A stretch of 36,128 nucleotides of DNA from a virus (taxonomy: Duplodnaviria > Heunggongvirae > Uroviricota > Caudoviricetes). Positions 3,498 through 33,788 of the stretch are shown here, one piece after another. Where the stretch lies: positions 1 to 36,128 of the IMG/VR virus record IMGVR_UViG_2778261667_000013; one strand, 5' to 3'. The translations under genes and the position numbers were made by a program. The notes beneath the pieces are model-generated. The model ran no database searches. It saw only the letters and a program-made list of their open reading frames with translations, and had not been told where the DNA came from. Numbering within the stretch: the first letter of the stretch is position 1; every line of letters starts with the position of its first letter.

Positions 3498-4483
3498 TAT
3501 GCCAGCCTCACAATATAGTTATATGCAATGTTTTTTACGGTGTTTTCCGCATTACCAGTAGCGTTAACCGTGATGGTATGTCCGTGCGCACCCAATGCCA
3601 CAGTGTGTGCATGGGCACCAATACCTACGGTGTGGTTATGTGCCCCAATGTCGACTGTATGTGCATGATTGCCTGATGCACTTGTAGTCGTAGCACCTTT
3701 ATCACTTCGGGGAACACCATAATCTGCACCGCCTGATTGCACGCTCACAGCAAAGCCAACGGTATGTGTATGATTTCCCGTATTGTTCGTTGATTTTGTG
3801 CCGTGGTTAAACGTGCTGACTGTCTTCGTGCCGTAATCAAATGAGCTGGTCGTTTTAGTACCGAGGTCAGTATTTGATGCGCTGGCACTGTGGGTGTGCG
3901 ACTTGATGCCATCCTGTTCCTGAGACAATACGGCACGCCCACTGGCAGGCTTACCCTTAATTGTCCAGCCGCGCATATCAGGAATAACCCCGGACGGATA
4001 GGCAGCCGCAAGTTTAGGGTAAGAGCCTTTATCAAAACTTTGCCCCTGCATTAAGGCATAACCGGATGGCACAGAATCAGATGGCCACGGGATTGGTGTC
4101 CCGACCGGTAAAGCAGTGCTCTGTAACTCTGTAATTTTTTCTGCTAACGCCTTTATTGCCTTTGGCGTGGCTGCCAGCTCTTCTGAGTCACTGTCTGTTG
4201 CGCTACTGAGCTGAACGATGCCTTTCTTCGTTAATGATGCGTCAGGAACTTTTTTCCCGACATATAAAGCCAGCGCCTCAACCAGTTGATTCTGTTTTTT
4301 CGGGTCCGGGTTTACACCGGCCTCTTTAAGGACGTTAATCACCTCCTGCTGCAAATCGCGCGTTGCTGCCTGATGATTATTCATATATTCAGCGTAAACG
4401 ATGGTTCCCTCAATTCCCTGAGTCGGGTCACCATCATGAAACAATTGATCCGGCGTATTCACCGGAGGCATTAAATTCTGCAT
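3497..4483 (-). CDS. short tail fibre protein (Mu S-like) with His-rich C-terminal tip
   Basis: 328 aa; conserved fibre motif [26 protein letters not shown]; C-terminus ...[72 protein letters not shown]... with repeated GAHxHTV units, as in lambda Stf-type fibre tips. Confidence 0.8.
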
Positions 4484-7195: not shown

Positions 7196-8403
7196 TTCTC
7201 CCAGACCTTAACAATGGCGACCTCTTTTTTCTTTTTGCCCCTGCGGTGATGGCGTTTCTTCTCGCGCGGGAAGGCGTCAGGTATCCACACGCCGTCCTCC
7301 TTAAAGCGGAGCCGGGTTGTCTTCCCGTTACGGCCTCCGCTGAACTCACGCCCCATCAGGAAAAAGATGGCGTCGATGCCGTGGGGTTCGCTGACAATCC
7401 GCACACGCTGGCCGGGCTGCCACAGGACACCGTCCGCCGTGCGATGACCTGCAACCAGTGCGACGATATCCAGCCCCGACAGACGGGCATCACTCATCAT
7501 TTTTTTGGCGCGCCAGTTCACCTGCTCCAGGTTGCTGGTGTCACCCTGAGTGATAATCTGCGGGCGGTAATAATCCACGGTGGGGTCGGTGGCCACAGCT
7601 TTCATGTTATGAATGCCTGTCTGGCCATTGTCCGTATTACCGCCGTCCCGCCCGGATAATGTGCGCACGCTGCCGTCCTCGTTCCAGATATCCAGTGGCA
7701 CTGTGGCCAGCTGCTTTTTGCTGTCTGCGCGGCGGGCGTGGCTCTGTGCCAGCACTGTAAGTTCGGAGAAGCAGCCGTTAATGGACCGGGTATCATCCAG
7801 CTCCATCACGTTGTTCCCGGTGCCGTCCAGCTTCAGAATCAGCGTATCCACCGGCGTGGTGGTGTAGTCAGGGCCACCCACAACCAGCGTCCCGTCAGGC
7901 TCAAACCACGGCCATAAGCCGCGACCGGCGGCAGCTTTAGCCAGTGCATCCCACGCACGCATCCCCGGCTCTATAACGACCTTGTCATTACGTGACACAC
8001 CGGACGCCTGAATACGAATGCGCTGTATCCCCAGCGGTCTGACTATCCTGTCGATGACCTCGTCCAGTGTCAGCTGGTTGGCGCTGAACACCGGCGCGGC
8101 ACAGTCCACCAGAATGGCGGCATCATCACGCCCGGACAGCGTCAGCGTGCAGCTCTGACGGGATACACTGCGGCGCACGCTGTCCACGCGACCACTGAGC
8201 ACCGTTTCGTCTCCCACCTGCAACCGGACTGGCGCACCCCGGACGATATCCGCCGGGAACACCTTTTCAGGCAGTCCCAACTGAAGCTGCCAGCCGTCGG
8301 CAGCTTTCAGGAAATCACTGTCAATACGGTAACTGCTCCAGTCAGAATGCGACCTTCCGGCAATGACCAGACTGATTTTGTCGTCGTTATTTTGCGTAGG
8401 CAT
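7192..8403 (-). CDS. tail protein (Mu P / gp44-like)
   Basis: 403 aa; follows N-like gene with 17-nt overlap; synteny with Mu P. Confidence 0.6.
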   Translation of the reverse strand: MPTQNNDDKISLVIAGRSHSDWSSYRIDSDFLKAADGWQLQLGLPEKVFPADIVRGAPVRLQVGDETVLSGRVDSVRRSVSRQSCTLTLSGRDDAAILVDCAAPVFSANQLTLDEVIDRIVRPLGIQRIRIQASGVSRNDKVVIEPGMRAWDALAKAAAGRGLWPWFEPDGTLVVGGPDYTTTPVDTLILKLDGTGNNVMELDDTRSINGCFSELTVLAQSHARRADSKKQLATVPLDIWNEDGSVRTLSGRDGGNTDNGQTGIHNMKAVATDPTVDYYRPQIITQGDTSNLEQVNWRAKKMMSDARLSGLDIVALVAGHRTADGVLWQPGQRVRIVSEPHGIDAIFFLMGREFSGGRNGKTTRLRFKEDGVWIPDAFPREKKRHHRRGKKKKEVAIVKVWEK

Positions 8404-17311: not shown

Positions 17312-18436
17312 TTACTTGTCTCCTGCGTAACGGGCGACATCCTCTGGATCAACGCCCATCATTGAACAAATGGCGATATCGACATCGACGTCATCGCCGG
17401 TTTTAATCTGCGCCGGGGCCGGTGACGGCGTTTTGGGTGGTTTGCCGCCGGTCTGGGTGCTGCTGAGTGCGGCAAGCGGGGTGGTTTTATCCAGCCAGGT
17501 TTTAAAACCGTTGATATCGCGACGGGCGTAATCTTTCGCCCAGTCTTCCAGCGTCGGAAGCAGTCGCCCGTCAGACAGCGCCGCCTGAATCAGTGCCCCG
17601 GCTTCGGCTTCACCGGACTGTTGCGCCAGTACGGCATAACGTCCCTGAAGTTCTTCATATGCCGTCAGAGGGATATGCTTCGTCGGGTCATAGGCATTTG
17701 CTGACAGGCTGGCGATTTGCTCGTCTTTCTGATTCAGCAGGGCCAGCAGGCTGACGGATGCCGCCGCCGTTCCCTGACCGTTCGAAATCATGTCAACGAC
17801 CTTTTGCAGCTCGTTTTTGATATCTTCCGCCGTTGAGGTAACCGGGAGGTTAAGCATCCAGCGCAGGTCGGAAAGCAAATTGTTTAACAGTTCTTCATCC
17901 ACCGTTGTGGTCTCCGTTTCAGTTGACAGACTCGCCAGACGACTGGCCGCAGCCAGCATGACCGCGTCCATACCGTCCAGCGCCGGGGTATTGGTCAGCG
18001 CAGCATGTAACAGCTCCAGCACTTCGCCGCGCTTGTTGTAGGCAAAAACAGGGGAAATAAATTTGTACTCACCGGCGGCAATCATGGCCGCCGCGTTCTC
18101 CGTCCACTCCACACCGGTGGCATACAGGCCCACACCTTCACGCCATTCCACCTGGCTGAACCAGCCCGCCGCCGGGGCGGGCTTGCCGTTGTTTACGGCG
18201 CGCAGCGTCTGATGTTCGTAATCAATGACAAAAGGCGTGGTACGGGCTGCCACCTGTGCGACAAGCTGCGCGGCCAGTTCGGCAGTCAGCACCCATTTAC
18301 CGCTTTCGACTTCATCGGTATGTGGGCGACCATCCACCGCACTGAACTCGCCTGCCGGAAACAGCTGGATTTCGCTGTGGGTTGCTTTGGTGATTTCGAG
18401 GCTTAATGCCGCAATGTTCATCTTCATACGCGGCAT
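17312..18436 (-). CDS. head maturation protease / scaffold protein (Mu I-like)
   Basis: ORF 17312..18481 begins at a GTG inside a conserved intergenic motif; likely start is one of the ATGs at MPRMKM (18436/18427/18421); start uncertain. Confidence 0.75.
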   Translation of the reverse strand: MPRMKMNIAALSLEITKATHSEIQLFPAGEFSAVDGRPHTDEVESGKWVLTAELAAQLVAQVAARTTPFVIDYEHQTLRAVNNGKPAPAAGWFSQVEWREGVGLYATGVEWTENAAAMIAAGEYKFISPVFAYNKRGEVLELLHAALTNTPALDGMDAVMLAAASRLASLSTETETTTVDEELLNNLLSDLRWMLNLPVTSTAEDIKNELQKVVDMISNGQGTAAASVSLLALLNQKDEQIASLSANAYDPTKHIPLTAYEELQGRYAVLAQQSGEAEAGALIQAALSDGRLLPTLEDWAKDYARRDINGFKTWLDKTTPLAALSSTQTGGKPPKTPSPAPAQIKTGDDVDVDIAICSMMGVDPEDVARYAGDK

Positions 18437-28835: not shown

Positions 28836-29056
28836 TGTGCAGCCTCCTGTTTTGCCACTTTAAACGCCCGTAACATCGGGACCGTTTTACCGGTGATGAC
28901 GGTTCTCATTAAAAGACCGCCACCGCTCTCATGGCGCACTTCAGGAGCAACAAACAGCGCCGCATCCACAACCCGGCAATAGCGACGGAACTCCCAGAAC
29001 CAGCAGGTAACAATGATTTTTGCGGTGACTCCGTAGTCATAAAATTCAATATTCAT
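28832..29056 (-). CDS. hypothetical early protein
   Basis: 74 aa; ATGA overlaps on both sides (translationally coupled cluster). Confidence 0.4.
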   Translation of the reverse strand: MNIEFYDYGVTAKIIVTCWFWEFRRYCRVVDAALFVAPEVRHESGGGLLMRTVITGKTVPMLRAFKVAKQEAAQ

Positions 29057-29280
29057 TTGCAGTTAAACCTTCTTTTGTGACGTTCTACAGCGGCTTTCAT
29101 GGCGTTGTGCACGGTTCTTTTAATAATCCGGCGTCCCGCACTGTCATAGAACCGCCACCGGGAAGCCTCCGGATATTTAGGGAACTCAACCGCCGCGCTG
29201 TCGTCATTCATCCTGTATTCGTGGCGTTCTCCGGGCGGCTGGTATATTGCTTCGGTAACACTGAGAAGTTTAAAAGCCAT
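29053..29280 (-). CDS. hypothetical early protein
   Basis: 75 aa basic protein; start 3 nt after the DUF2786-like gene stop. Confidence 0.4.
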   Translation of the reverse strand: MAFKLLSVTEAIYQPPGERHEYRMNDDSAAVEFPKYPEASRWRFYDSAGRRIIKRTVHNAMKAAVERHKRRFNCK

Positions 29281-29282
29281 CG

Positions 29283-29993
29283 TTATCCCCTCCCCAGTGC
29301 CAGCGGCCTGTTGTTCTGACCATTAACTCCCTGATGCAGTCTGGCGTTTTTCCCGGCGATAAAACCGGCTGTAGCAGCAAACTCTGCACCCCTGCACGCT
29401 TTAGCTGTGCGCATATCCCCGTCGCGCAGCCCTTTAGTGCTGTGCAGGTTCTTTCTGTAAAGCTCAAGGCGGCTTTTTTCTTCCGGGGAGACGTCATACA
29501 CCGCAATGACATCACGGGCACCAAAGACCCAGCCTTCGCAGAACTGGTCGCCACGGGCCACCCGCGTGGACGGACCGCAACGTTTGCAGTGTTTATCCTG
29601 ATATTTCTTGCGCTCTGCCATCATCTGACGGGAAAGCACATCAAACGCGTAGGCCGCAATTTCCGGGCGGCTGTCAGGGCCATAAAAACGAACGTAACGT
29701 TTGAGTGAACCAGAAGCCCGGTACTCACCGGAGATGTAACACTCGACACCGAAGGCTTTACATACCAGGTCACACAGGATGTGCATATAACGCGGCGGCG
29801 TACTGGCATCGCTCGGCGCACCCGCGCTGGCAGCTTCCTGAATGTCGAACAATTCCGCGTCGTTTTCGCTGATACCATGCTGGCGCATATAAGCCTGGGC
29901 TTTTGCAATAGCGTTAGCGGCTTCTTCCGGGCTTGATGTTCCTCTGGCAAGGCGTAACAGTTTTTTGATTTTGGCAATGTATTTATCTTTCAT
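29283..29993 (-). CDS. DUF2786-like protein
   Basis: 236 aa; N-terminus MKDKYIAKIKKLLRLARGTSSPEEAANAIAKAQAYMRQHGI resembles the DUF2786 N-terminal helical domain; C-terminal part has CxxC (HCKRCG) and further Cys. Confidence 0.5.
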   Translation of the reverse strand: MKDKYIAKIKKLLRLARGTSSPEEAANAIAKAQAYMRQHGISENDAELFDIQEAASAGAPSDASTPPRYMHILCDLVCKAFGVECYISGEYRASGSLKRYVRFYGPDSRPEIAAYAFDVLSRQMMAERKKYQDKHCKRCGPSTRVARGDQFCEGWVFGARDVIAVYDVSPEEKSRLELYRKNLHSTKGLRDGDMRTAKACRGAEFAATAGFIAGKNARLHQGVNGQNNRPLALGRG

Positions 29994-30006
29994 GGTCGCC
30001 TGAACC

Positions 30007-30189
30007 TCAGCGCCCTGGATTCTGAATTACGCAACTTCCAGCACGGCCTTCAGGAACGTGGGGAGTTCGTTCTGGCTGCGGCGCTGGATGAACATCTGCT
30101 GTCGATTGAAAACTGGTCGCAAGACGATTAAAACAAACGATTGTCAGATTAATTTCGCGGGCGAATTTTTTTTGCTTGGCGATATTCAT
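30007..30189 (-). CDS. short ORF downstream of repeat copy A (possibly a gene remnant)
   Basis: 60 aa; good RBS (GAGGA) supplied by the repeat, but protein is low-complexity and Pro-rich in its second half. Confidence 0.25.
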   Translation of the reverse strand: MNIAKQKKFAREINLTIVCFNRLATSFQSTADVHPAPQPERTPHVPEGRAGSCVIQNPGR

Positions 30190-30202
30190 AAATAAACTTC
30201 CT

Positions 30203-30273
30203 CAGATTCAGGCGTAAGCCAGCCCTGGCGGGTTTACGCCATATACAAATAAAATTAAAAACAGACTTATTAA
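30203..30273. repeat. intergenic direct repeat copy A (hairpin + RBS cassette)
   Basis: cagattcaggcgtaagccagccctggcgggtttacgcc + AT-rich tail; ~38 bp core identical to copy B except 1 nt; coordinates approximate. Confidence 0.7.
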
Positions 30274-30821
30274 CTACGACGTTCAGCTTTCCGGTAATGA
30301 CGGTCAACAGACTTTACGAACGCCTTCACATCACGGGCAATCGAATCCAGCGGATAATATTCATCCAGCAGTTCCATCCCGCTGAATCGAATCTGAAAAA
30401 AATCAGGCTTATCTTTATATGACTCCATCAGGTCAATAAACCGCAGCTGACGCGGGAGGGATTCCTGCACGCCTGAAATAGTGAGCAAATCATCTTCAAG
30501 GATGTATGCAAGGTCTACCATATCCTTACAGTCAGACATCATGGATATTCTTGTCAGTATGTTCCGTGTGGCGATATACAGCGCGGCTGTGTCATTCGCC
30601 ATCATGGCGAACAAATCCCCCTGAATATAAGCCCCCTTACTGGCCATAGCATTCCCGGCAATCTGCGCATCAAGTACCACATACATAAAATCGCCAGGTG
30701 CACCCAGATGGCCCAGCAATGATGACGCCCATAACGTTACATTGGTTAACTTCCCAGATGAACGGACAGCAAAACCTTCAGGAGTAACAATAAATTCCCA
30801 GACTTTATCTTTCATATACAA
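30270..30821 (-). CDS. hypothetical protein (accessory module gene 2)
   Basis: 183 aa; no recognisable motif; lies between the two repeat copies. Confidence 0.5.
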   Translation of the reverse strand: MYMKDKVWEFIVTPEGFAVRSSGKLTNVTLWASSLLGHLGAPGDFMYVVLDAQIAGNAMASKGAYIQGDLFAMMANDTAALYIATRNILTRISMMSDCKDMVDLAYILEDDLLTISGVQESLPRQLRFIDLMESYKDKPDFFQIRFSGMELLDEYYPLDSIARDVKAFVKSVDRHYRKAERRS

Positions 30822-30879
30822 ATCCCCTTAATTCAGGCGCAGACCTGTTTACCTGCGCCATAAAAAAACGAAGTCAGAG

Positions 30880-31272
30880 TTAAAAATCGAAGACGTCAGT
30901 TAATTCCCGCTTCAGTGAAACGCACTCAGAATAAAAGCCCTCGCTCTCACCGCACCATCTGACGACTACACAGCCTTTTGATGTGCCGAACTTAAAGAAA
31001 CTCCATGTCTGATGACCTTCCCCGACATCACATTCTTCGGTAACCACTTCAGCCTCTGTCAGCGGTTCATCTTTCAGGTCGTCAAGGTCTCCGACGATGT
31101 CCTCAATCCAGACTTTTTCGCAGCCTTCCTGAAAGTGGAAAAATGTAAACACGGTTCCCCATACTCCCCGGGAATAATCACCACGAAAAACAAGTTCATC
31201 GTTTTCATTCTTAACTACTTCTTTAAATGTACGCCCAAGCATTTCATTGATAACGGTAACACTCATTTTCAT
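30880..31272 (-). CDS. hypothetical acidic protein (accessory module gene 1)
   Basis: 130 aa, acidic with 6 Cys; RBS GGAG supplied by repeat copy B. Confidence 0.5.
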   Translation of the reverse strand: MKMSVTVINEMLGRTFKEVVKNENDELVFRGDYSRGVWGTVFTFFHFQEGCEKVWIEDIVGDLDDLKDEPLTEAEVVTEECDVGEGHQTWSFFKFGTSKGCVVVRWCGESEGFYSECVSLKRELTDVFDF

Positions 31273-31277
31273 TTCTC

Positions 31278-31350
31278 CAGATTCAGGCGTAAGCCAGCCC
31301 CGGCGGGTTTACGCCTGTTTTAAATAACAATTAAAAACAAATTAAATTAA
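31278..31350. repeat. intergenic direct repeat copy B (hairpin + RBS cassette)
   Basis: cagattcaggcgtaagccagccccggcgggtttacgcc + AT-rich tail; ends at the stop of the upstream ORF; coordinates approximate. Confidence 0.7.
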
Positions 31351-31538
31351 TGCGGTGCTTTCAGTGTTTCGACTTTTACGAAATAAGGCTCGACATTAAT
31401 TTCAACCACACAACCACATTTAAAATCTCTGACAGGTGAAACGGTTTTCACCACACGACCGCCACGCAACGCCGGATGTGCAGTGTGCATGAAGCGAGTC
31501 CCTACCGGATACTGCTTATTAAAGTTCTTCGCATTCAT
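31347..31538 (-). CDS. hypothetical early protein
   Basis: 63 aa ORF; no motif recognised. Confidence 0.35.
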   Translation of the reverse strand: MNAKNFNKQYPVGTRFMHTAHPALRGGRVVKTVSPVRDFKCGCVVEINVEPYFVKVETLKAPH

Positions 31539-31752
31539 GGCGTGGCCTCCAGCCCTTCAGGTGAGCGTTAGCGCAGAACTCCGCACGATGTTCAGCCCAG
31601 ATGCGGCGCAGGGTGCTACACGGGCTTTGCGCTGCCTTACGCCACAGCTTTTCAGCCTCGGCATAATCGCCGCGTTGTTCTGCTCTGGACGCGCCCAGCG
31701 AATACGCCGCGCAACTATTTCCGGCTCTGTACTCTTTGATATCCTGATGCAT
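31519..31752 (-). CDS. small hypothetical protein (possible small regulator)
   Basis: ORF 31519..31863 trimmed to MHQDIKEY... (31752) so that it abuts the upstream gene stop at 31754; weak resemblance to small helical regulators. Confidence 0.3.
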   Translation of the reverse strand: MHQDIKEYRAGNSCAAYSLGASRAEQRGDYAEAEKLWRKAAQSPCSTLRRIWAEHRAEFCANAHLKGWRPRHECEEL

Positions 31753-31753
31753 G

Positions 31754-32398
31754 TTAAACCCCTGCAATATCAAGCGGGATTGCGCGGTATTCAGCAGAAT
31801 CACCGACGCGCTCATACACGCGGATATAGCTTCTGCTGCCAACCACCTGGACGGCTTCACCAATCAGTTTCATGGCGTTATCCCAGCGTTCCTCCGTAAT
31901 ATCGAGACGACGCAGAGCCAGAACGCGCCCGGTGTTAATGTTGCCTTCCTTGTCCGTGCTGAATGCCTCACTGATGATGGCTTTAATTTCAGGGCGCGCT
32001 CCTTCCGTCCAGTCAGCCAGGCAGTCATCAATCAGTGCCTTCGCGGTCTGAATGCGTTCATCAAGCGCGATACGGTCCTGCATGGCGCGCTGAATCTTGT
32101 AACGCCCGTCAAAGCTGTAAAGCGTGATATTGCCTTTTTTGCCGCCTTTCACAGCGCCGTATTTCTCCGCTGACAGGTCAATAAATGCCTGAATATCACC
32201 AAACGCACGCAGTTTCAGTTCACGCAGTGAGGCGGAGGCAGCAATCACCATCTCCACAAGCTCACCGACCAACTGCTCACGGTCTCGGTCAATATCTTTG
32301 ATAAGACTTTCAGGCGTCATCACACCACGGGCATCAACCCAGTAGCCTTCCTGCACTTTATTTTTTGTATATTGCTTAACTTTATTTTCAGTCGTCAT
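31754..32398 (-). CDS. DUF3164-like phage protein
   Basis: 214 aa; sequence character and position downstream of B match the DUF3164 family common in Mu-like prophages; from recall, not searched. Confidence 0.5.
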   Translation of the reverse strand: MTTENKVKQYTKNKVQEGYWVDARGVMTPESLIKDIDRDREQLVGELVEMVIAASASLRELKLRAFGDIQAFIDLSAEKYGAVKGGKKGNITLYSFDGRYKIQRAMQDRIALDERIQTAKALIDDCLADWTEGARPEIKAIISEAFSTDKEGNINTGRVLALRRLDITEERWDNAMKLIGEAVQVVGSRSYIRVYERVGDSAEYRAIPLDIAGV

Positions 32399-32427
32399 AA
32401 TTAAATTACCTCAGTGATATTTACAGA

Positions 32428-32643
32428 TTAATTTGTGTTATGTGCGCGAGGCGCAACGTTTTCAGAAAAAAGATTCACGCCGTTATAGTCATTTCTGAGC
32501 GTTTCCTTGATAACATCATGTAATCTTGTTGCCACCTGAAACTCCTTTTCGGAAGCTCCGTCCTCCGAATAACTCCCCGTGGTCTGGGTTAAAACACAGC
32601 CTTTTTCATCGGTATAGATAATTACTTCTAACTTAACCGCCAT
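32428..32643 (-). CDS. hypothetical early protein
   Basis: 71 aa ORF. Confidence 0.35.
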   Translation of the reverse strand: MAVKLEVIIYTDEKGCVLTQTTGSYSEDGASEKEFQVATRLHDVIKETLRNDYNGVNLFSENVAPRAHNTN

Positions 32644-32655
32644 TCTGATTTCCTC

Positions 32656-32895
32656 TCATTGCCATACGACGGTGCAGCCGTCGATACAGGACGTTTTCAC
32701 CACGCGGCGCAGGCCGCTGAATGTCTGGATGATTTCCGTTACCGGCCATACAGGACCACCCACGGGCGGGCAGGCATAAACCACAGGTAAACGGTGATGC
32801 TGTCCCGTTACACGACCGCCAGTGGTGTGGATGGCCACACGGGCACGGGAACGGACGGCGTTAATGGTCTGCTTGTCCATCGTCTTGTTCTCCAT
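32656..32895 (-). CDS. hypothetical early protein immediately downstream of B (Mu kil position)
   Basis: 79 aa; stop/start overlap with B; synteny only. Confidence 0.35.
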   Translation of the reverse strand: MENKTMDKQTINAVRSRARVAIHTTGGRVTGQHHRLPVVYACPPVGGPVWPVTEIIQTFSGLRRVVKTSCIDGCTVVWQ

Positions 32896-33788
32896 CAGTG
32901 AATTAACATTTCTGCGAATTTATCAATGGCCTGCACACTGACCGGTGCATCGCTGATATCACAAATCCGGTACACACCGCGCGCCAGTTTGAAGAGGCGG
33001 CGGGCATTACCCAGCGAGCGTGCGTAAAGCGCCTCGCTGATTTCCGGTTCTGCTGCTTCCGGCATCAACCCGGTAGCTATCTGGTTAAAATCTTCCTGCG
33101 ACAACGTATCGCCCAGGTTAAGCGCCAGCGCCACACGGCTGTATAACTGGGCGAACTCACCACGACGCCCCTTAAGGTTAATCAGAAGACGAGGCATACC
33201 CGCCAGGACAACCCCGATACCCGCTTTGTCATGCAGACGACGCAGAACCTCCAGTGCGCGATAGGGGAGCAGTTCAGCCTCGTCCACCATCAGCAGGCGA
33301 CCGGAATCACGCAGTTCGCGCACACAGGCATCTATCAGTTCGTGAATGTTGCCGCGAACCTTTACCCCCAGCTGGCGGCACAACTCCTCAAGCAGTGTTC
33401 TGGCTGTATAGCCCGGGTCAGCCTCAATCAGGACCGCATCCCGGTTTCTGGCGGCGTATTCACGCAGAATCATTGTTTTGCCAAGACCTGCCGCGCCATA
33501 CAGTACGCAGATTTCACATTCCAGGTGAGCATAGGCCAACACCTCCAGTCCTTTGGCAGCCATACCGGTGGCAACAAATTTCGCTTTAATACGGCGGCTG
33601 TTTTCCTTTTCCCGCTCACGGGTCACAAAGGCAGAAATGCGTTCTTCAATATCAGCCATATCGCCCTGATATTTACCCTGTAAATACTGGTTGATAACGG
33701 CGCTGCTACGACCAATAGCACGGGCGACGTGGGTTTGCGTATAGCCGCGACGGGCCATTACGTCATTTAATTGCGTAATTAAACTCAT
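32895..33788 (-). CDS. MuB-like transposition ATPase (AAA+)
   Basis: 297 aa; N-terminal HTH-like segment (YTQTHVARAIGRSSAVINQYLQGK), Walker A GAAGLGKT, Walker B LLMVDEAE; immediately downstream of transposase. Confidence 0.85.
   Translation of the reverse strand: MSLITQLNDVMARRGYTQTHVARAIGRSSAVINQYLQGKYQGDMADIEERISAFVTREREKENSRRIKAKFVATGMAAKGLEVLAYAHLECEICVLYGAAGLGKTMILREYAARNRDAVLIEADPGYTARTLLEELCRQLGVKVRGNIHELIDACVRELRDSGRLLMVDEAELLPYRALEVLRRLHDKAGIGVVLAGMPRLLINLKGRRGEFAQLYSRVALALNLGDTLSQEDFNQIATGLMPEAAEPEISEALYARSLGNARRLFKLARGVYRICDISDAPVSVQAIDKFAEMLIH

Follow-up and report, generated by a model that had tools for sequence, protein, structure and literature searches.

A hairpin linker at the breakpoints of gene-by-gene variation in the early operon of a Mu-like Escherichia coli prophage

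In a Mu-like prophage of Escherichia coli, given here as the whole 36,128-nucleotide (nt) stretch of IMG/VR record IMGVR_UViG_2778261667_000013 (the window), two small genes of the early operon stand between near-identical direct repeats. The locus raises the question of what these repeats are, and of whether the genes between them come and go as a pair or singly. An earlier note on this DNA had read the pair as one exchangeable two-gene cargo module bracketed by two repeats. Three related elements were found in the present analysis, a third having been missed between the two genes, and in relatives the gene content at this slot varied gene by gene, with breakpoints at the element. The repeats are probably explained by a conserved intercistronic hairpin linker that doubles as a recombination substrate for the turnover of cassettes one gene at a time.

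Linker elements in the window

The early operon lay on the minus strand and ran from right to left in window coordinates (Table 1). Its direct repeat, D1, paired positions 30198-30261 with 31273-31336 (64 nt, 83% identity, ungapped) and contained a 38-nt core (30203-30240 and 31278-31315) with a single mismatch (T/C). The core had 0 matches in 100 shuffles, which ruled out a chance origin of the repeat and confirmed what the earlier note had said of near-identical copies with a 38-base-pair (bp) core. In a global alignment the two copies remained similar along their AT-rich tails, as far as 30273 and 31350, and the repeat originally delimited at 31278-31350 comprised element copy 2 plus the remainder of its AT-rich tail. 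Each copy contained a 30-nt imperfect palindrome (30211-30240 and 31286-31315).

On the coding strand, each copy presented in order the stop codon of the upstream gene, an AU-rich spacer of about 30 nt, the hairpin, UGAAU, a Shine-Dalgarno (SD) sequence and a start codon. The initial description, in which each copy began at an upstream stop and supplied the ribosome-binding site of the next gene, stood in outline and required its gene order to be specified: all genes were on the minus strand, and 31273-31350 had the open reading frame (ORF) of a 63-amino-acid (aa) basic protein upstream and a DUF7448 gene downstream. The hairpin of both copies, termed type A, was GGCGUAAACCCGCC(G/A)GGGCUGGCUUACGCC on the coding strand. 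In copy 2 the AU-rich spacer was followed by the hairpin GGCGUAAACCCGCCGGGGCUGGCUUACGCC (31286-31315), by UGAAU and by the SD sequence GGAG of the DUF7448 gene. In copy 1 the hairpin (30211-30240) carried the loop variant CCAGGG and was followed by UGAAU and the SD-like GAGGAAG.

The third element, type B, was located by the ATTCAGGCG motif, by its fold and by a covariance model, and consisted of a U-rich spacer, the hairpin GGCGCAGGUAAACAGGUCUGCGCC (30836-30859), UGAAU and the SD sequence of the second cargo gene, which encodes a 181-aa protein. Its hairpin differed from that of type A (GGCGCAGGTAAACAGGTCTGCGCC, with the stem GGCGCAGG...UCUGCGCC), and the 3' CGCCTGAAT / CGCCUGAAU was in common. 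Because this element separates the two ORFs, each gene is a cassette in its own right.

The covariance model, built from 19 element variants and run on the 36-kb window with filters off, returned exactly three sites, all on the coding strand and all in the slot. With only three sites in 36 kb, the element was not a generic spacer ahead of every early gene, and the early genes other than those at the three elements abutted or overlapped one another. The reservation in the earlier note that the repeat might be a generic intergenic element was therefore borne out in one respect, as an element was constant after the 63-aa gene whatever the cargo and even with none, but not in the other, as it did not precede most early genes. 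The 9-mer ATTCAGGCG occurred five times in the window (0.38 expected), and three of these occurrences were inside the elements; the other two (8005-8013 and 17582-17590) were in the late region on the opposite strand, had no covariance-model match and are probably coincidental.

Several known classes of element were considered. No sigma-70 promoter was found in the three elements by a consensus scan of 29000-32500, which returned one site, at 32461, against 4.3 expected. By the scan criteria no intrinsic terminator was predicted, with no T-run after the stem on either strand, and in the sense direction the stem was directly followed by UGAAUCUGGAG. A promoter or terminator of the kind present in the PeSL elements of T4-type phages was rejected, since neither signal was found by these scans. 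The sole Rfam match, to Lnt RNA, was on the antisense strand and reached 26 bits against a gathering score of 55 (expectation value, E, 0.95), and was likewise rejected. The early region encoded MuA and MuB and no tyrosine or serine recombinase, and there was no IntI or attI among its genes (MuA, MuB, DUF3164, ANR, DUF2786 and similar). In attC sites, the R''/R' cores RYYYAAC ... GTTRRRY flank an imperfect palindrome of 57-141 nt; no such core sites (RYYYAAC / GTTRRRY) were visible in the element alignment. No prior description of the element was found in the literature.

Gene content and breakpoints at the slot in relatives

Six E. coli prophages spanning the coverage classes and 22 viral contigs carrying the element were compared. 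At least ten architectures were found between the 63-aa gene and the DUF2786 gene, the latter being, by synteny, at the right edge of the slot in all E. coli-type loci. The slot was empty in L024, L027 and L028, and in the more distant L010, L014, L015 and L022. It contained only the segment that in the window lies between copy 1 and the DUF2786 gene (the 60-aa segment) in L009, L011, L013, L019 and L025, the 181-aa gene plus this segment in L002, L003, L007, L008 and L020, and the 181-aa gene alone in L004. A 177-aa variant was accompanied by an unrelated 121-aa gene in L005 and L018, DUF7448 was alone in L006 and L016, a 66%-identical DUF7448 was found with other small genes in L012 and L023, and a 125-aa gene occupied the slot in L026. 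The triple arrangement of the window (DUF7448, 181-aa gene and 60-aa segment) recurred in L001 and L021/L042, and E. coli C5 (NZ_CP010122) likewise has three elements at the slot.

The 181-aa gene was present without DUF7448 in L002, L003, L004, L007 and L008, and DUF7448 without the 181-aa gene in L006, L016 and the Klebsiella locus L111. DUF7448 was also followed by a type B element in L001, L006 and L042, and in L016/L044 by a variant with compensatory changes. The DUF7448 and 181-aa genes are best taken as unrelated, independently mobile accessory genes.

At every junction, ...CGCCTGAAT led into the ribosome-binding site belonging to the gene downstream. Breakpoints were at the 3' edge of the element and the AU-rich spacer remained with the upstream gene, so that the cassette comprised SD sequence, ORF, spacer, hairpin and UGAAU. 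The filled slot of L004 and the empty slot of L027 were exactly one cassette apart, and this cassette was flanked by two 35-nt type A copies. The clean deletion predicted from the repeats, which joins the spacer of the 63-aa gene, one element and the flank of copy 1, was found in the five loci with the 60-aa segment only (L009, L011, L013, L019 and L025). In L013 the single element combined the spacer of copy 2 with the loop variant (CCAGGG) and the 3' flank of copy 1, as a crossover between the two copies of the window would be expected to produce. The claim that the repeats mark the edges of exchangeable cargo was thus sustained by relatives with the predicted deletion, at a hotspot of presence and absence.

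In the loci without the 60-aa segment (L004, L024 and L027), UGAAUC was predicted by folding to pair with GAUUCA past the main hairpin and to form a second small hairpin, the loop of which contained the SD sequence GAGGG of DUF2786. This second hairpin may provide a translational control specific to the junction between the element and DUF2786.

Distribution, conservation and rival explanations

In a sample not conditioned on the element (80 viral loci anchored on DUF3164), all loci with a homologue of the 63-aa protein, down to 31-37% protein identity, had a GC hairpin 25-45 nt past its stop codon. The hairpin was present in 33 of 33 distinct regions downstream of such homologues, and was of the GGCGTAA...TTACGCC type in 31 of the 33, whereas the covariance model found no element in about 30 Mu-like loci without the 63-aa gene. 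Over 94 sources (745 kb), the model returned 80 coding-strand matches, one to three per locus and none elsewhere, all of them directly behind either the 63-aa gene or a cargo gene. Two isolated phages, Pseudomonas VW-6B and Klebsiella ST405-OXA48phi1.1, had the element in the one gap of notable size in their early operons, and in a Klebsiella chromosome prophage it was directly followed by DUF7448. Among 100,044 species genomes there were two matches only, in Morganella and Cedecea, each in this Mu-like setting.

In E. coli the element was at 81 unannotated places in 53 of 5,426 complete genomes (one to four per genome), and the region was 95-96% identical to prophages in 58 of these genomes. 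As the genomes with the element were essentially those with the prophage, the element was not a host repeat, and an identity with host repeats of the repetitive extragenic palindromic (REP)/BIME type, which are scattered in hundreds of copies over host intergenic regions, was rejected, all places being in prophage. Megablast of the region against 50,697 phage records gave no match; isolated phages were reached only through the short element and the 63-aa protein. In the loci sampled, the 63-aa protein and the hairpin 3' of its gene co-occurred almost perfectly in phages of Escherichia, Klebsiella, Morganella and Pseudomonas; the protein might bind the hairpin as a nucleic-acid partner, or the association might reflect no more than shared synteny.

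No other local sequence was as well conserved as the hairpin, which surpassed the neighbouring proteins and was 23/29 to 30/30 identical (77-100%) to that of the window where the flanking DUF3164 and 63-aa genes were 56-70% identical in nucleotides. The outer arms and UGAAU were nearly invariant across clades. The inner stem differed by clade yet stayed complementary (CCGCC/GCUGG, CGC/GCG and GCGUC/GAUGC), and in types B and B' two outer pairs were swapped compensatorily. A hairpin was retained through the differing sequences of types A, B, B', C and the L073 type; in the alignment fitted to the covariance model, 97.8% of the cells were paired (slid controls 23-42%) and double changes occurred at 3 of 9 pairs. 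The coding-strand loops of unlike stems shared a G-rich motif, C(A/G)GGG(G) (for example 31298-31303), with CAGGGGAU in some clades, which hints at sequence-specific recognition. A CsrA site in this loop, considered in view of the variants with CAGGGGAU, was dropped because the loops of the window's variants have no GGA.

In the explanation favoured here, the repeats would be copies of a linker of about 58 nt made up of an AU-rich spacer, a GC hairpin of 12-13 bp (arms GGCGUAA/UUACGCC), UGAAU and an SD sequence. Among Mu-like phages, those of Enterobacterales and at least one of Pseudomonas have a copy directly 3' of the 63-aa gene, and this copy would mark the start of the accessory slot. Cargo genes in sense orientation mostly have, in the E. 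coli lineage, their own copy of the element, or a variant of it, at the 3' end, and each cassette would be bracketed by direct repeats. Turnover would come about when elements recombine over short stretches of homology, whether both lie in one genome or in different phages resident together. Host or phage recombination functions could plausibly act on an identity of 30-35 nt. Less confidently, the hairpin may be kept for a role in the sense early mRNA, as a 3' stabiliser or processing barrier by the AU-rich stretch or, alternatively, as an insulator that lets promoterless cargo be translated from its own ribosome-binding site.

Several points weigh against the favoured explanation. No recombination event was observed, and the sequences compared do not give the direction (insertion or deletion) of each event. 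Types A and B share only GGCG and CGCCTGAAT (9 nt), which is too short for ordinary RecA recombination, so that turnover of DUF7448 would need microhomology, a third partner or differently flanked donor, or selection after illegitimate recombination. The last cargo gene before DUF2786 was sometimes without an element of its own (L005, L012 and L026), and distant clades had one copy only, though their downstream content varied. Independent events are few because many loci are close relatives. The pairing and double-change figures lean in favour of the structure because the alignment was fitted to it. The type A hairpin was more stable as antisense RNA (-18.2 kcal/mol) than as sense RNA (-13.9 kcal/mol), and the L073 type was more stable as sense; the asymmetry between G-U and A-C pairs favoured antisense in type A and the L055 type, and sense in the L073 and C types. 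As this strand asymmetry is inconsistent, a role as RNA, or which RNA strand would exert it, is not proven.

The proposal of the earlier note that the two ORFs act together as a toxin/immunity, exclusion or anti-defence module and move as a unit did not hold and is extremely unlikely. Both genes are bracketed by two type A repeats, their triple arrangement recurs, and a toxin-immunity protein is the best match of DUF7448 among solved structures, but each gene was found without the other in several lineages and the third element separates them, which argues against a toxin/immunity or other obligate pair. DUF7448 also stands alone in unrelated lytic phages and giant viruses, there was no PADLOC or Pfam toxin/antitoxin match for either gene, and the two differ in range, DUF7448 being pan-viral and the 181-aa gene limited to E. 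coli. The two cargo genes are better regarded singly than as a pair. Alternatively, the element might be only a cis-acting expression signal that travels as a 3' untranslated region, either a stabilising or processing hairpin or the site of a regulator, for example the 63-aa protein. Turnover would then result from illegitimate recombination with selection for junctions that keep expression, and the repeats would be a by-product, not the substrate. The conservation of the element without cargo and where it is single-copy, a hairpin more conserved than the neighbouring genes, the compensatory changes, and a hairpin after DUF7448 that differs by lineage (B, B' and C), as if co-evolving with the gene, are all consistent with such a signal. 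It is nevertheless unlikely as the whole explanation: the 181-aa cassette is between two near-identical 35-nt type A copies, the empty and filled alleles are exactly one cassette and one repeat apart (L027 against L004), the recombinant-type element of L013 fits a crossover between copies, and illegitimate events would not land repeatedly on the same few nucleotides.

A dedicated, attC-like site of site-specific recombination, at which a protein captures or excises promoterless cassettes at a fixed point by UGAAU, would account for cassettes of an ORF and an imperfect palindrome in one orientation with expression from an upstream promoter, for the exactness of junctions at CGCCTGAAT, including those where hairpin A meets the dissimilar hairpin B, for the strong conservation of the arm sequences and the G-rich loop, and for the small basic protein always encoded beside the first copy. 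It is very unlikely in a phage whose early region has no tyrosine or serine recombinase, the more so as most of the distant clades are single-copy and the element does not resemble attC core sites (as generally defined). The loop polymorphisms CCAGGG / GTCGGGG, moreover, tended to accompany the downstream flank (few cases, with counter-examples), which would put the exchange points of these cases within the 5' arm instead of at one constant 3' position. A hairpin bound, as RNA or single-stranded DNA, by the 63-aa or another early protein that directs precise insertion or excision at the UGAAU edge is highly improbable.

Cargo, neighbouring genes and known systems

Table 1. Coordinates of the linker elements, cargo genes and neighbouring early genes in the window.
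Feature	Position	Strand	Remarks
Mu transposase, 680 aa	33807-35849	-	
MuB-like AAA ATPase	32895-33788	-	
DUF3164 gene	31754-32398	-	
ANR-family (AraC negative regulator) small protein	31519-31758	-	NCBIfam NF033650, E 1e-15
63-aa basic protein gene (phrog_5591; isoelectric point, pI, 9.8)	31347-31538	-	Left anchor of the slot, constant; hairpin element always follows
Linker element copy 2 (type A)	31272-31329	-	Directly 3' of the 63-aa gene; covariance model 71.8 bits, E 4e-17
Cargo cassette 1, DUF7448 protein	30880-31266	-	128 aa from ATG 31266; ORF also opens at 31272 (130 aa)
Linker element type B	30822-30873	-	Between DUF7448 and 181-aa gene; covariance model 44.4 bits, E 2e-9
Cargo cassette 2, 181-aa ORFan (phrog_7741)	30270-30815	-	phrog_7741, E 4e-119
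Linker element copy 1 (type A)	30197-30254	-	Directly 3' of the 181-aa gene; covariance model 70.8 bits
Segment between element copy 1 and DUF2786 gene	29994-30196		Both strands carry reading frames
DUF2786/DUF7168 gene	29283-29993	-	Pfam; constant right anchor of the variable slot

The 130-aa ORF of DUF7448 most likely starts at its second ATG, as in RefSeq and in homologues. Its product was acidic (pI 4.3) with five Cys, as the earlier note had stated. The accompanying statement that no family could be assigned to either product held for the 181-aa ORFan and not for this protein, which matched Pfam DUF7448 (E 2e-15; 57.4 bits, gathering score 27; positions 2-103 of the 104-position profile). 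Its structure model was confident (predicted local distance difference test, pLDDT, 84), and in BFVD the model matched DUF7448 proteins (E 2e-9, template-modelling score, TM, 0.76). Relatives were found in Bacillus phage BigBertha, Enterococcus phiEF24C, Providencia PR1 and Pseudomonas Noxifer, and among the BFVD matches in the giant viruses Hokovirus, mimivirus, Tupanvirus and Pithovirus. In L112, a JGI metagenome contig of a lytic-type phage, DUF7448 (4001-4369) was adjacent to thymidylate synthase and DNA methylases, and was without the element. Such a spread, over giant eukaryotic viruses and the lytic phages of both Gram-positive and Gram-negative hosts, suggests a function that is very general on the virus side and not peculiar to E. 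coli. The toxin-immunity protein already mentioned as the top solved-structure match makes DUF7448 a tentative candidate for a polymorphic-toxin immunity protein (PIM7-like); no toxin gene adjoined DUF7448 in the window, in Klebsiella L111 or in L112, and a sequence-profile search against the PDB gave no match. No prior account of DUF7448 function was found in the literature.

The start of the 183-aa ORF was placed at ATG 30815, giving 181 aa. Relatives of this protein were found only at 83% identity or more among 5.8e9 proteins, only its own cluster was found among 1.84e9 representatives, and it was confined to E. coli Mu-like prophages. The AF2 (AlphaFold2) model was unreliable (pLDDT 45) and unusable because the family holds only members of at least 83% identity. 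In L020/L034 (5263-5804) the 181-aa gene was matched by tblastn in two overlapping segments in different frames, which suggests a frameshifted pseudogene. PADLOC, Pfam, NCBIfam and PHROGs gave no functional assignment for the cargo proteins of the slot, for which anti-defence or exclusion is a candidate function.

Different cargo proteins had a common N-terminal leader, with MKDKVWEFIVTPEGFA in the 181-aa protein, MKDKVWSPVEW in the unrelated 121-aa protein of L005 and MKTDKVWQAITPPDGYS in a 125-aa Cedecea protein (L113, 170-547). The DUF2786 protein of the window began with MKDK and those of empty-slot relatives with MENKS. With such a leader common to different cargo, some exchange joints may lie within the first codons, as in-frame N-terminal swaps.

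The ANR-family ORF overlapped the start of the 63-aa gene, and its product has a possible host-regulation function of the prophage. In the segment next to DUF2786, a 60-aa minus-strand ORF (30007-30189), which some RefSeq genomes list as hypothetical, appears to be spurious. The plus strand (30000-30131) carried the last 44 codons, without a start, of a 72-aa reverse-oriented gene (LNLSALDSELRNFQHGLQERGEFVLAAALDEHLLSIENWSQDD, then the stop) that was intact in L017 with its own AGGAG ribosome-binding site; from these two observations, the window would hold a 5'-truncated remnant of an antisense moron. A hairpin followed by T8 at about 30150-30178, beyond the antisense remnant, did not pass the terminator scan. 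The GC content was 44.6% in the two-gene region, 50% in the early region and 56% in the late region, so that the dip reported earlier was real against the late genes but modest against the early region.

The element is akin to known phage mosaicism devices. Its closest analogue is the PeSL. In T4-type phages, PeSLs consist of an AT-rich stretch with the stop codon, a stem-loop, an SD sequence and a start, and are concentrated in a hyperplastic region of non-essential ORFan genes (Arbiol et al. 2010, PMC2839356; Comeau et al. 2014, PMC4122927). The PeSL motifs are the sites of indels and replacements between close relatives, for which recombination between nearby copies was proposed, and mini-circles have been demonstrated. 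The motifs also include a strong sigma-70 early promoter, and the stem-loops serve as terminators (PMC2839356; PMC4122927). The Mu element shares with them the layout of stop, AT-rich stretch, stem-loop and SD sequence, the ORFan-rich region, the repetition at the edges of indels between close relatives and the proposed recombination role. In contrast to PeSLs, it has no promoter-like or terminator-like site and no sequence similarity to them, its cassettes are promoterless members of a single long operon in a temperate, transposable phage, and it is present in one to three copies per genome at a single slot, where PeSLs number dozens. Short conserved non-coding boundary sequences at gene junctions of lambdoid phages have also been proposed to generate mosaicism through homologous recombination (PMC3029335). 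Those sequences are described as rare and unstructured, whereas the Mu linker is a defined hairpin with covariation, found across genera at one slot.

The likeness to integron cassettes lies in promoterless single ORFs in one orientation, each with a terminal imperfect palindrome, behind one upstream promoter, and in a cassette number that varies among relatives. It is architectural only: there is no integrase, attI or attC core, the palindrome is 30 nt, and the crossover position is apparently not fixed in the Mu element. The REP sequences of the malE-malF spacer are intercistronic stabilising hairpins. Like them, the element places a GC-rich stem-loop between two cistrons and lacks a U-tract behind it, which by analogy would be compatible with protection from 3' exonucleases; unlike them, it is not host-wide and has no REP consensus. 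As with morons, accessory genes of lower GC content (44.6% against 50-56%) are variably present between conserved genes, but classical morons have their own promoter and terminator and the cassettes have neither; the reverse-oriented remnant at 30000-30131 is nearer to a classical moron.

The slot provides a case of temperate transposable phages exchanging accessory genes at one early-operon position that a conserved structured linker delimits, with ORFans swapped singly. The hairpin is absent from RNA family databases (Rfam) despite being the most conserved sequence locally. Its covariance model pinpoints the slot in Mu-like phages of Escherichia, Klebsiella, Morganella, Cedecea and Pseudomonas, which aids prophage annotation, and offers a way to harvest candidate host-takeover or anti-defence genes from cargo so far without assigned function. 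If dedicated cassette capture were true, the locus would be a functional analogue of the integron and a programmable accessory-gene slot for transposable phages.

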